From: Escherichia coli
GTDB lineage: Bacteria; Pseudomonadota; Gammaproteobacteria; Enterobacterales; Enterobacteriaceae
Direction: 5' to 3' (one strand)
Assembly: GCF_003334815.1 (NCBI RefSeq)
Contig: NZ_QOWO01000132.1
Length of the DNA stretch: 377 nt
Under the pieces are notes generated by a model that worked only from the letters and a program-made list of their open reading frames with translations, was not told the DNA's origin and searched no databases. Each line of letters starts with the position of its first letter. Positions within the stretch are counted from its first letter, which is position 1. This document shows positions 2-302 of the stretch, piece after piece. Made by a program: the position numbers and the translations under genes.

Positions 2-77
2 TGGTGGGTCGTGCAGGATTCGAACCTGCGACCAATTGATTAAAAGTCAACTGCTCTACCAACTGAGCTAACGACCC
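2..77 (-). tRNA. lysZ: tRNA-Lys, anticodon UUU, complete 76-nt gene with encoded 3' CCA
   Basis: Reverse complement of 2-77 reads GGGTCGTTAGCTCAGTTGGTAGAGCAGTTGACTTTTAATCAATTGGTCGCAGGTTCGAATCCTGCACGACCCACCA. This folds as a cloverleaf: acceptor stem GGGTCGT/ACGACCC, D-arm GCTC/GAGC, anticodon stem GTTGA/TCAAT with loop CTTTTAA (anticodon TTT is plus 42-44 aaa), T-arm GCAGG/CCTGC with TTCGAAT loop, then discriminator A and CCA. It matches the E. coli tRNA-Lys(UUU) sequence as I recall it. The lysZ label rests only on the recalled 146-nt lysY-lysZ spacing and is tentative. Confidence 0.95.
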
Positions 78-111
78 ATACGGGTGTTACCTGAAAGATT
101 TTTACTCGGGG

Positions 112-128
112 CCAATCTTTAAGATTGG
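112..128 (-). other. Hairpin (7-bp stem, 3-nt loop) overlapping the CCA end of the partial tRNA-Lys copy
   Basis: Plus 112-118 ccaatct pairs with plus 122-128 agattgg; loop is 119-121 tta. In the minus-strand transcript CCAAUCU-UAA-AGAUUGG, the first CCA is the CCA of the tRNA 3' fragment. Confidence 0.45.
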
Positions 129-143
129 TGGGTCGTGCAGGAT
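125..143 (-). repeat. Partial copy of the tRNA-Lys 3' end (18 nt of the gene including CCA, plus 1 flanking nt) embedded in the spacer
   Basis: Plus 125-143 ttggtgggtcgtgcaggat is identical to plus 1-19. Positions 126-143 are the reverse complement of ATCCTGCACGACCCACCA, the last 18 nt of tRNA-Lys. Identity ends at 144 (g versus t in the real gene). It matches the Lys 3' end, not the Val 3' end (tggtgggtgatgacggg). Confidence 0.85.
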
Positions 144-157
144 GACTCGCTTCGCTC

Positions 158-184
158 GCCCTACGGGCCGTTGCTGGCGCAACG
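158..184 (-). other. Two adjacent short GC-rich hairpins in the middle of the spacer
   Basis: Plus 169-174 cgttgc pairs with 179-184 gcaacg (6 bp, loop 175-178 tggc). Plus 158-161 gccc pairs with 165-168 gggc (4 bp, loop 162-164 tac). Both are perfect inverted repeats read directly from the sequence. Confidence 0.4.
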
Positions 185-197
185 TTATCCTTCACGC

Positions 198-220
198 TTA
201 ACATCTGAGTTTGATGTTAA
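198..220 (-). other. Hairpin (8-bp stem, 7-nt loop) starting 3 nt downstream of the lysY-position tRNA 3' CCA
   Basis: Plus 198-205 ttaacatc is the exact reverse complement of plus 213-220 gatgttaa; loop is 206-212 tgagttt. In the minus-strand transcript this is UUAACAUC-AAACUCA-GAUGUUAA. The stem is AU-rich (6 AU, 2 GC), so only moderately stable. No U-tract follows it. Confidence 0.5.
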
Positions 221-223
221 AAC

Positions 224-299
224 TGGTGGGTCGTGCAGGATTCGAACCTGCGACCAATTGATTAAAAGTCAACTGCTCTACCAACTGAGCTAACGACCC
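224..299 (-). tRNA. lysY: tRNA-Lys, anticodon UUU, complete 76-nt gene with encoded 3' CCA
   Basis: Plus 224-299 is identical base for base to plus 2-77, so the same cloverleaf and anticodon apply (anticodon is plus 264-266 aaa). It lies 3 nt downstream, in the transcription direction, of the tRNA-Val gene. The lysY label is from the recalled valZ-lysY 3-nt spacing and is tentative. Confidence 0.95.
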
Positions 300-302
300 G
301 AG

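Follow-up and report, generated by a model that had tools for sequence, protein, structure and literature searches.

The 146-nt spacer that separates two tRNA-Lys genes in this stretch of the Escherichia coli chromosome is a composite, made of a 98-nt tRNA-linked repeat (TLR) and of the ordinary 48-nt 5' leader of lysZ. The repeat is an already known, catalogued element, and our result is hence a re-identification. We consider it probable, with roughly three chances in four, that the spacer is correctly read as the catalogued TLR behind lysY followed by the lysZ leader, dispensable for the cell and at most a transient intermediate of processing. The window (the whole stretch of 377 nt that we analysed) is 100% identical to the valZ-lysY-[146 nt]-lysZ region of E. 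coli K-12, with the genes on the minus strand; the spacer, positions 78-223, corresponds to NC_000913.3 781223-781368. Its features are the following:

2-77, minus strand: lysZ, tRNA-Lys(UUU), the downstream gene, cleaved by RNase P at its 5' end (ARAGORN; Rfam tRNA; K-12 annotation; processing model of Agrawal et al., 2014).
78-125, minus strand: 5' leader of lysZ, 48 nt, outside the repeat (length match to a whole EPEC Lys-Lys spacer).
126-223, minus strand: TLR unit (RtT family), 98 nt, from the base after the lysY CCA through the pseudo-CCA end (Rfam RF00391).
126-143, minus strand: copy of the tRNA-Lys 3' end, 18 nt, AUCCUGCACGACCCACCA; 134-143 form the 3' arm of P1 and 126-133 the unpaired ACCCACCA tail.
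149-155, minus strand: P4 mini-hairpin, GC-GAA-GC in K-12, 3 bp in most relatives (pair counting).
158-168, minus strand: P3 hairpin, GCCC-GUA-GGGC, sequence-invariant core (98% of cells paired).
169-184, minus strand: P2 hairpin, CGUUGC-GCCA-GCAACG, sequence-invariant core (98.7% of cells paired; four of six pairs never vary).
187-196, minus strand: 5' arm of P1, CGUGAAGGAU, pairing with 134-143 (helix 1 in pair counting; RNAalifold; centroid fold).
198-220, minus strand: 5' hairpin, UUAACAUC/GAUGUUAA, with a 7-nt loop (repeat search; MFE and centroid folds).
224-299, minus strand: lysY, tRNA-Lys(UUU), directly upstream of the repeat unit (ARAGORN; Rfam tRNA, 79.2 bits; K-12 annotation).
300-302, minus strand: Val-Lys junction, 3 nt, CUC (ARAGORN coordinates).
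303-378 by ARAGORN, clipped at the window edge (377), minus strand: valZ, tRNA-Val(UAC) (ARAGORN; K-12 annotation).

The original prediction described the spacer as far longer than needed between two tRNAs, rich in perfect inverted repeats and carrying a tRNA-like 3' segment, and each of these observations was borne out. Gene coordinates from ARAGORN give 146 nt vs 3 nt for the Val-Lys junction. A repeat search of the spacer recovered perfect inverted repeats of 8 nt (198-205/213-220), 8 nt (112-119/121-128) and 6 nt (169-174/179-184), together with one of 10 nt that is 90% complementary (91-100/114-123), and a 4-bp GCCC/GGGC stem can be read off the sequence at 158-161/165-168. The tRNA-like segment is real: TGGTGGGTCGTGCAGGAT at 126-143 (ATCCTGCACGACCCACCA on the transcribed strand) is exactly the last 18 nt of both tRNA-Lys genes, identical in 18/18 nt to 224-241 and to 2-19, so that the window holds three copies where 0.00 are expected (200 shuffles). 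The extra length of the spacer exists because one 98-nt copy of the catalogued repeat sits there. No new RNA need be postulated for the odd length or for the tRNA-like segment, as TLR identity accounts for both. Subtraction of the unit leaves a 48-nt leader, which has the same length as the corresponding spacer of EPEC and differs from it at a few bases.

Membership in the family is supported by Rfam and by the published catalogue. When the spacer was searched alone, 126-223 matched RF00391 with 41.0 bits (E 3.8e-7; model positions 46-130). With upstream context the match rose to 54.4 bits at 126-292, above the gathering threshold of 45 bits, in an alignment whose 5' third lies on the tRNA-Lys gene and which contains a 44-nt insertion. 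RtT matches follow every tRNA-Lys gene of the lysT operon (46.7-60 bits vs the threshold of 45). PGAP labels the unit behind lysQ 'RtT sRNA', and annotation pipelines give this label to some units only: the internal ones are missed, since their alignment to the Rfam model runs over into the tRNA gene. As in the RF00391 model, an outer helix between the 5' arm and the tRNA-end copy encloses the AACGUUGC/GCAACG and CCC/GGG hairpins. TLRs are defined by an 18-19 bp 3' end identical to the end of the upstream tRNA or rRNA gene, and 22 of them have been counted in K-12, at ten loci (Stenum et al., 2021). Positions 126-143 agree with this definition, and the unit begins one base past the lysY CCA, on the minus strand, within the lysT operon. 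The strain table of the same work (table S1) lists five lysT-locus units, after T, W, Y, Z and Q, and the one studied here is the lysY entry. The family, first described in 1978 (Egan & Landy) and catalogued since 1999 (Rudd; both cited via Stenum et al., 2021), has no known function according to published work. In the units that we compared across genera, the conserved core pattern occurs behind tRNA-Lys, Tyr, Arg and Pro and also with a 5S-type ending, always on the transcribed strand and directly 3' of a stable RNA gene; outside Enterobacterales, members are also found behind tRNA-Pro and tRNA-Arg(CCG).

The unit is built of a 5' hairpin and a four-helix domain (P1-P4). Its closing stem, P1, is formed by the 5' arm and the first 10 nt of the 18-nt tRNA-Lys end copy, leaving the 8-nt ACCCACCA tail; in the modelled structure, P1 looks like a T-stem that runs on into a short acceptor stem. 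Predicted folding energies are -43.0 kcal/mol for the spacer RNA (z = -2.9) and -32.7 kcal/mol for the 98-nt unit (z = -3.5; 0/200 shuffles as good). The plus strand folds equally well (z = -3.3), as expected for hairpins, and folding energy alone therefore has no power to name the functional strand. P1 to P3 are present in the centroid fold of the single sequence. In the MFE structure of the full spacer, the 5' arm of P1 pairs with the leader (AUCUUUCA) and not with the tRNA-end copy, which makes the fold inside the precursor uncertain.

Comparison of units gives information that energies do not. Among 25 short-form units, 94.6% of cells pair, vs 28-49% when partners are slid by 1-3 columns, and none of 500 shuffles reaches the observed covariation score. 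RNAalifold returned the same helices independently of our hand-specified structure. Compensatory changes are seen in P1 (UA to GC) and in P4, whose middle pair is GC, CG, AU, UA or UG across the 25 units. The 5' arm of P1 varies with the identity of the upstream RNA, and the counterparts of the closing stem are GGGGAAGGAU/AUCCUUCCCC behind tRNA-Tyr, AGAGGAU/AUCCUCU behind tRNA-Pro and GGCAGUU/AACUGCC in the 5S context; overall, this stem has compensatory support across Lys, Arg, Tyr, Pro and 5S contexts. The position of the 5' hairpin is occupied by hairpins of different sequence in E. cloacae and Enterobacteriaceae RIT691, and by weaker ones in Phytobacter and Pluralibacter. The strict sequence of P2 and P3, together with compensatory changes in P1 and P4 among genera and five kinds of upstream RNA, argues for selection on the RNA. 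Judging from these alignments, a purely passive passenger would leave the conservation of the fold unexplained, and this weighs against our preferred reading, as do the discrete RNAs that paralogues give.

The pairing pattern bears directly on an explanation at the DNA level. There the unit would be a repeat that is neutral or selfish, the 18-bp direct repeat that it forms with the tRNA 3' end would lead to precise deletion, duplication and unequal crossing-over that mainly shape tRNA-gene copy number, and the fold would be incidental or reflect DNA hairpins. The distribution of the unit agrees well with such a view. In EPEC E2348/69 all four internal units are precisely missing: the spacers measure 35, 51, 48 and 33 nt, i.e. 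the K-12 lengths minus 100, 98, 98 and 99 nt, with near-identical sequences. In E. coli SCPM-O-B-8794 two units are missing and two are retained, so that presence and absence are exact at the direct repeats and independent for each spacer. By BLAST, the full spacer is found in 4,068 of 5,426 complete E. coli genomes and about 25% are without it, a count in which the joining of pieces merges TLR-bearing and TLR-less states and makes the TLR-less total inexact. The number of tRNA-Lys genes also varies by strain (five in K-12, six in EPEC), tandem TLR arrays are found behind tyrV and in other genera, and the two strands fold equally well. Furthermore, a strain from which all 22 TLRs had been removed could be cultured and served as a source of RNA (Stenum et al., 2021). 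These data show that the unit is dispensable and that it is gained and lost exactly at its 18-bp direct repeats. An exclusively DNA-level explanation is nevertheless at odds with the pairing pattern, since the 5' arm of P1 lies outside the duplicated tRNA end and still matches it in five classes, and P4 pairing is kept through five pair types, including the strand-specific G-U. It also has to face the constant placement of units on the transcribed strand just 3' of a stable RNA gene, and the orthologous unit that Enterobacter, Phytobacter and Pluralibacter keep at the same junction. We hold it possible, though on the doubtful side.

The reading of the spacer as a TLR that is at most a transient processing intermediate is in line with what is known of the lysT transcript. 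The operon is transcribed as one polycistronic precursor of roughly 1.1 kb that RNase P processes 3' to 5', and RNase II and PNPase remove the 3' trailers of the Lys pre-tRNAs, which may reach 150 nt (Agrawal et al., 2014). A promoter scan found no sigma-70-like promoters on either strand of the spacer, and its transcribed strand has no intrinsic terminator or U-tail: the RNA runs on into lysZ. The unit itself has no promoter-like site, and published work places its transcription within the ~1.1-kb precursor. In the published scheme, RNase P cleavage at the 5' end of lysZ yields a lysY pre-tRNA with the unit and the leader as its 3' trailer, which is then degraded by RNase II and PNPase; with RNase P inactive, RNase E is able to cleave within the spacer. 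The unit is most likely a transient part of the pre-tRNA. Folded and with its tRNA-like end, it would be at most a short-lived processing intermediate and not a stable trans-acting RNA, and the tRNA-end copy probably serves as a tRNA-like stop or cleavage point for 3' processing nucleases. If it has a role, this would be to modulate, in a non-essential way, precursor processing or, via recombination, tRNA-gene copy number. Cleavage by RNase P 5' of P1, where ACCC would serve as a pseudo-ACCA, was considered and dropped because the Tyr and Arg units are laid out differently.

A stronger version of this idea gives the unit a cis-acting function, as a roadblock for exonucleases or an entry site for nucleases that times or protects 3' maturation of the upstream tRNA or keeps the long precursor whole up to the end of transcription. 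The layout of P1, a T-stem and the start of an acceptor stem followed by the ACCCACCA tail, speaks for it. So does a hairpin at 112-128, formed by the first bases of the leader and the CCA of the pseudo-3'-end: CCA-enclosing hairpins recur with varied sequences, and in EPEC the genuine tRNA CCA takes part. In the literature, recognition by RNase E of the repeated 3' end of RrB, as at 5S rRNA, has been proposed (Stenum et al., 2021), and nascent lysT transcripts were remarked to be apparently protected until transcription is complete, structure or chaperones being suggested as the cause (Agrawal et al., 2014). Against such a function, strains without units make the same tRNAs, the strain deleted for 22 TLRs grows, and levels of mature tRNA-Lys are hardly altered by rne-1 (Agrawal et al., 2014). 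We find it unlikely.

The original prediction went further and proposed a stable, structured spacer-derived RNA acting as a small-RNA sponge. The structured part stands, through the conserved fold, the compensatory changes and co-transcription with the tRNAs; the stable RNA and the sponge drew no support from Northern blots, which detected precursors only, or from RIL-seq, where the spacer has no entry. In its full form, the proposal is that the spacer or the 98-nt unit persists, binds Hfq and sequesters one or several sRNAs in the manner of 3'ETS-leuZ. Besides the strong and conserved fold, it can call on the high transcription of the lysT operon and on paralogous TLRs that give discrete RNAs (rttR; RrA, RrB and RrF, whose short form is Hfq-enriched in pull-down), although these are a precedent in paralogues only and not for the lysY-lysZ spacer. 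Two spacer-specific Northern probes (8 and 9) detected large precursors only, and only in rnpA49 or rne-1 rnpA49 mutants, according to the authors' description, in which small or rare species may have gone unreported; the trailers were assigned to exonucleases (Agrawal et al., 2014). None of the four lysT-operon spacers is in a supplementary list of RNAs with significant Hfq RIL-seq chimeras, where mature lysT and lysQ tRNAs are present, and since the repeat occurs five-fold in the operon, short-read interactome pipelines may discard its reads. The text of the TRIC-seq preprint does not mention the lysT-operon spacers, nor do the TIER-seq, OMV-tRF, stationary-phase sRNA and NaF studies mention the lys spacers.

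Base-pairing potential was evaluated with RNAduplex for the spacer, the unit and the leader against 12 sRNAs (RyhB, RybB, MicF, MicA, OmrA, OmrB, GcvB, Spot42, ArcZ, CyaR, SdsR and ChiX), i.e. 36 tests with 300 dinucleotide shuffles each. No duplex energy went beyond shuffled controls after allowing for the 36 tests. The positive control, 3'ETS-leuZ, recovered RyhB (0/300 shuffles) and missed RybB, and the sensitivity of the test is therefore limited. The best z of the whole spacer was -0.9, vs -5.1 for 3'ETS-leuZ with RyhB. The best duplex, between the leader and RyhB, was matched or beaten by 4/300 shuffles in one of the 36 tests, and includes a 9-nt Watson-Crick match of CUUUCAGGU (leader, 89-97) to RyhB nt 26-34; chance alone is expected, however, to give a 9-mer match with one of 12 sRNAs about half the time. 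The spacer's lack of a terminator hairpin with U-tail, the module by which Hfq is usually bound, and the many E. coli genomes missing the unit count against a stable RNA too. So does the best-studied paralogue (RrA/B/F), with a half-life of 2-3 min, an affinity for Hfq far below that of OxyS and no RNA partner that came down with it reproducibly. On our analysis the sponge idea appears unsupported rather than refuted, and we judge a persistent, sRNA-sequestering spacer RNA very improbable.

Other kinds of gene were examined as well. An independent gene in the spacer was rejected on the missing promoter and terminator described above, and an antisense RNA because the plus-strand Rfam matches are only spurious ones (antisense tRNA). 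A coding spacer was rejected likewise: its ORFs of 26-54 aa enter tRNA genes or start at a TTG inside a hairpin. The case closest to a precedent is a small protein resembling tpr, which is annotated within the tyrT unit as a 'protamine-like protein' and whose frame through the conserved core is open in the spacer as well; here a TTG ORF at 102-182 would encode MRQQRPVGRAKRVILHDPPILKIGPE, to be compared with ...RCRRQRPEGRSAQR in tpr. This ORF begins, however, at a TTG within the P2 loop, the longer ORF of 54 aa (ATG, another frame) enters the lysZ tRNA gene, and other units of the lysT operon diverge upstream of the core, where the start would have to be. The RNA pairing pattern is enough to account for the conservation, and we give a spacer-encoded protein practically no credence.

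We prefer to see the spacer as a dispensable TLR followed by the lysZ leader, yet the family as a whole poses a puzzle still to be solved, with a structure that is strongly conserved and invariably found behind stable RNA genes. An improbable solution would be that TLRs are mimics of the tRNA 'top half', with a T-stem/acceptor-like helix, a CCA-type tail and a three-hairpin core, that share an activity, or else that they are a mobile element. As mimics they might be transient decoys or sponges for a factor binding tRNA 3' ends, for Hfq, CsrA or an sRNA, and the decoy level would report the transcription rate of stable-RNA operons. The alternative would be a small element homing to the 3' ends of stable RNA genes; this version fits the presence of the same core behind five kinds of stable RNA and its dispersal in other Gammaproteobacteria, where core-containing 74-bp related repeats are both dispersed and in tandem (Alcanivorax, Pseudomonas, Pectobacterium). 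The class-specific closing stem, the precise-deletion alleles available in E. coli and the tRNA-Pro and tRNA-Arg(CCG) members make experiments straightforward.

Among known systems, the closest is the TLR family of E. coli, to whose 22 catalogued copies the spacer unit belongs and whose type example is the RtT of the tyrT operon (RF00391, rttR, 178-bp repeats). The spacer unit and this type example both lie on the same strand as a stable RNA gene and directly after it, both have final 18 nt that repeat the 3' end of that gene, and they have in common the core AACGUUGC...GCAACGGCCCGnAGGGCGA and a closing stem between the 5' arm and the 3'-end copy. They differ in that the spacer unit is a short form of 98 nt with a conserved domain of ~70 nt, and is without the T-arm-like insert of ~40 nt that is seen in the tyrT units and in those after lysQ and lysV; it scores 41-54 bits against the RtT model, vs 133-138 bits for the tyrT type locus. 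It also sits between two tRNA genes, while the tyrT RtT is at the operon end and is released as a discrete RNA of 171 nt (rttR, annotated in K-12), with none reported from the spacer unit in the published descriptions that we could draw on.

RrA, RrB and RrF, TLRs that lie between twin terminators in rrnA, rrnB and rrnD, belong to the same family, are transcribed with a stable RNA and, like the spacer unit, have the 3' end of the upstream RNA copied at their own. They exist as 173-nt and ~115-nt species, the short form co-purifies with Hfq, and they bind CsrA in vitro via GGA loops; the 19 TLRs of tRNA operons score <0.01 in a predictor of CsrA binders (Stenum et al., 2021). Additional hairpins and a terminator downstream are present in the Rr units and missing from the spacer unit. 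The 3'ETS-leuZ and the metZWV internal spacers (Lalaouna et al., 2015) are, as the spacer is, by-products of tRNA polycistrons, and these do act as sRNA sponges. The sequence of 3'ETS-leuZ is unrelated to that of the spacer, and, unlike the spacer, this RNA finishes with the operon terminator and a U-tail, owes its release to RNase E, pairs extensively with RyhB and is present in interactome data. Finally, TLRs share with REP/BIME and similar repeats their being short, hairpin-rich, multi-copy, dispensable and intergenic, and are set apart from them by their tie to the 3' ends of stable RNA genes, of which each carries a copy.

The lysY-lysZ spacer spans 78-223 (146 nt), is transcribed from the window minus strand, and lies in a window with 100% identity to E. 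coli K-12. The original prediction had described a 146-nt spacer, a Val-Lys junction of only 3 nt and several inverted repeats; the positions of the tRNA genes bore out both distances, and a repeat search of the spacer recovered all the described features:

2-77, minus strand: tRNA-Lys(UUU) gene (ARAGORN)
224-299, minus strand: tRNA-Lys(UUU) gene (ARAGORN)
303-378, minus strand: tRNA-Val(UAC) gene (ARAGORN)
198-205/213-220: perfect inverted repeat of 8 nt (repeat search)
112-119/121-128: perfect inverted repeat of 8 nt (repeat search)
169-174/179-184: perfect inverted repeat of 6 nt (repeat search)
91-100/114-123: inverted repeat, 90% (repeat search)
158-168: GCCC/GGGC stem of 4 bp

The tRNA-like 3' segment, also predicted, proved to repeat the final 18 nt of tRNA-Lys exactly (126-143), a sequence present three times in the window for 0 copies expected. 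Comparison with enteropathogenic E. coli (EPEC) E2348/69, whose lysT-operon spacers measure 35, 2, 51, 3, 48, 33 and 33 nt, resolved the structure of the spacer. Subtracting 100, 98, 98 and 99 nt from the K-12 spacers yields the EPEC lengths of 35, 51, 48 and 33 nt with nearly the same sequence, and the K-12 segments absent from EPEC end in ...CCACCA. Because EPEC spacers match these remainders, the 146 nt consist of a 98-nt unit (126-223) and the 48-nt lysZ leader (78-125). The spacer RNA folds more stably than its shuffles (z = -2.9), and the unit alone does so more strongly (z = -3.5); since the opposite strand folds equally well, folding energy alone cannot pick the strand.

The unit belongs to a known family. 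Rfam RtT (RF00391) scored 54.4 bits over the spacer (threshold 45) in an alignment whose 5' portion covers the tRNA gene, and a search with the spacer alone matched exactly 126-223 (41.0 bits, E = 3.8e-7). RtT matches follow each of the five tRNA-Lys genes of the lysT operon (5/5), with four more at the type locus tyrT and one at lysV, and PGAP labels the unit 3' of lysQ 'RtT sRNA'. The pal-cpoB junction (1-128 of L002, the K-12 lysT region), upstream of the operon, holds an Rfam CpoB/ybgF thermometer (RF02782, 119 bits) with no relation to the spacer. The literature knows these elements as tRNA-linked repeats (TLRs), first described in 1978; K-12 has 22 catalogued units at ten loci, one to five per locus, and each repeats at its 3' terminus the exact 18-19 nt with which the tRNA or rRNA gene upstream ends; Stenum et al. 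(2021) state that they have 'no known function'. The strain table of that study lists five units at lysT (suffixes T, W, Y, Z and Q) and, as it names the Y unit, the unit after lysY is already catalogued.

Natural alleles lack the unit. EPEC (serotype O127:H6; locus L125, NZ_LT903847.1, 578-1390) is without all four internal units and carries six Lys genes, while E. coli SCPM-O-B-8794 (L110, 2157-3057) misses the first two and keeps the last two; in both strains the boundaries of the missing units fall precisely at 18-bp direct repeats. The full spacer is present in 4,068 of 5,426 complete E. coli genomes, and a unit occupies the same Val-Lys-[unit]-Lys junction in Enterobacter cloacae, Phytobacter, Pluralibacter and another Enterobacteriaceae isolate. 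Since these other genera carry it there, the EPEC absence is most simply read as a loss, precise and between the 18-bp direct repeats. Such gain and loss, together with the variation in copy number, could be accounted for if the unit were purely a DNA-level repeat; this would leave unexplained the class-matched 5' arm and the G-U-containing covariation of its RNA fold.

We scored an explicit four-helix model (P1-P4, P1 being the closing stem) on an alignment of 25 short-form units (Lys and Arg). In these, 94.6% of cells were paired versus 28-49% with partners slid, and the observed covariation score was reached by none of 500 shuffles. P1 shows UA-to-GC exchanges that follow tRNA identity, and the P4 middle pair occurs as GC, CG, AU, UA and UG, with few independent events (classes) behind the support for P1 and more for P4; the sequences of P2 and P3 do not vary. 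RNAalifold predicted the same helices, and Tyr, Pro and 5S units have the closing stem too, its arms matching each class. From its sequence, P1 reads as a T-stem that runs on into the acceptor 3' strand by 3-4 bp: apart from one change, the T-stem 5' strand is found within its 5' arm, and an 8-nt ACCCACCA tail is left over beyond it.

Flanking hairpins, one 5' and one enclosing the CCA, recur in several genera with different sequences. In the second (112-128, minus), the pseudo-3' end contributes its CCA to a pairing with the first lysZ-leader bases; E. cloacae and Phytobacter have the pairing in other sequences, EPEC forms a hairpin of the same type with a genuine tRNA-Lys CCA (L125, 1041-1072), and the lysW-valZ leader pairs with the entire ACCCACC tail. 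In the full-spacer MFE and centroid structures the partner of the P1 5' arm (UGAAGGAU) is the leader (AUCUUUCA; 88-100 with 187-196, minus) and not the tRNA-end copy, with which the arm pairs in the isolated unit. The leader pairing may represent an alternative fold within the precursor.

The lysT promoter drives a single transcript of ~1,100 nt, whose tRNAs are separated by RNase P from the 3' end toward the 5' end; RNase II and PNPase trim off the Lys pre-tRNA 3' trailers, which can reach 150 nt, and RNase E cuts in the long spacers only in the absence of RNase P activity (Agrawal, Mohanty and Kushner 2014). With two lysY-lysZ spacer probes, the same authors described full-length species and large ones in rnpA49 as well as rne-1 rnpA49 mutants, and 'surprisingly few' intermediates in the wild type. 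The best-supported picture is that unit and leader together make up the pre-tRNA-Lys(lysY) 3' trailer and are degraded. The folded unit with its tRNA-like end would then be a transient intermediate, and the tRNA-end copy would probably give nucleases a tRNA-like point at which to stop or cleave, as proposed for RNase E at RrB, an RNA from an rrn-operon TLR (Stenum et al. 2021). The tRNA-like end also agrees with the unit being a cis-acting processing signal, yet the unit can be dispensed with: a strain from which all 22 units are missing could be grown and served for RNA work (Stenum et al. 2021) and, given also the natural alleles without the unit, any role is non-essential.

We consider it highly improbable that a spacer-derived RNA acts as a small-RNA sponge. 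Paralogues do yield discrete RNAs (rttR; RrA/B/F) and RrB-short is enriched on Hfq, yet this RNA has a lifetime of 2-3 min, falls far short of OxyS in Hfq binding, and pulled down CsrA, not Hfq, with no reproducible RNA partner; the 19 tRNA-operon units score below 0.01 as CsrA binders (Stenum et al. 2021). None of the lysT-operon spacers appears in a RIL-seq partner list that names the lysT and lysQ tRNAs. A search of the spacer for a terminator, a U-tail or a promoter found none. In duplex tests against shuffled controls, 3'ETS-leuZ/RyhB as positive control gave z = -5.1 and the spacer at best z = -0.9, in an assay that is not sensitive (RybB was missed in the positive control). The sole low value, leader/RyhB (4/300 shuffles, from a 9-nt match at 89-97), is the chance expectation over 36 tests. 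The site (CUUUCAGGU, minus) is a perfect complement of RyhB nt 26-34 (ACCUGAAAG), which adjoin the RyhB region pairing with 3'ETS-leuZ, and is kept in the EPEC leader.

It is very unlikely that the spacer encodes a peptide like that of tpr, the legacy 'protamine-like protein' gene of the tyrT unit (L003, 788-877). The tpr frame is also open here (102-182, minus), with a start only at a TTG within the P2 loop, and the tpr-frame peptides through the conserved core read RQQRPVGRAKR versus RRQRPEGRSAQR. The DNA-level, processing-signal and peptide readings are not mutually exclusive with that of a degraded trailer.

Scanning one genome per species for the core gave at least 120 loci. Among the matches listed, the core lies behind tRNA-Lys, Tyr and Arg(ACG), and also tRNA-Arg(CCG) in Marinobacterium (L027) and Amphritea (L098), tRNA-Pro UGG in Gilliamella (L078, L079) and, as a TLR-like unit, tRNA-Ser in Photobacterium (L116), besides regions with a 5S rRNA-type ending. 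Lys, Tyr, Arg(ACG), Pro and 5S-type units carry at their end a copy of the 3' end of the RNA upstream, and in the Gilliamella Pro units copy and 5' arm are matched. TLR-like units thus reach Orbales, Oceanospirillales and Vibrionales; the published discussion that we found covers Enterobacterales. Units of 74 bp with the TLR core (AACGUUGC..GCGACGGCCCGAAGGGUGA and two flanking hairpins) occur in Alcanivorax, Pseudomonas, Pectobacterium, Brenneria and Arsukibacterium, dispersed and in tandem, mostly not adjoining tRNA genes:

74-bp units: Alcanivorax sp. 24 loci L030-L044 (e.g. L041, 3641-3796); also loci L045, L059, L081, L082, L089-L092, L100, L101 and L118

Four of these loci (L034, L037, L041, L082) matched no Rfam family at E <= 0.01; the 74-bp units appear co-linear with the rrnB T1-T2 unit.

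The element was already known, and a small-RNA role for TLRs has already been posed as a question in print. What we add is descriptive: a clean decomposition of the lysY-lysZ spacer, natural alleles with precise unit deletion, explicit pair counts for the four-helix model, and a family range extended beyond Enterobacterales. The units after lysQ (L002, 2154-2345) and lysV (L004, 1030-1216), nearly identical to each other, each lie between two near-identical whole Rho-independent terminators (ATGTAAAAAAGCGCCCTAAAGGCGCTTTTTT), the same twin-terminator layout as described for rrnA, rrnB and rrnD.
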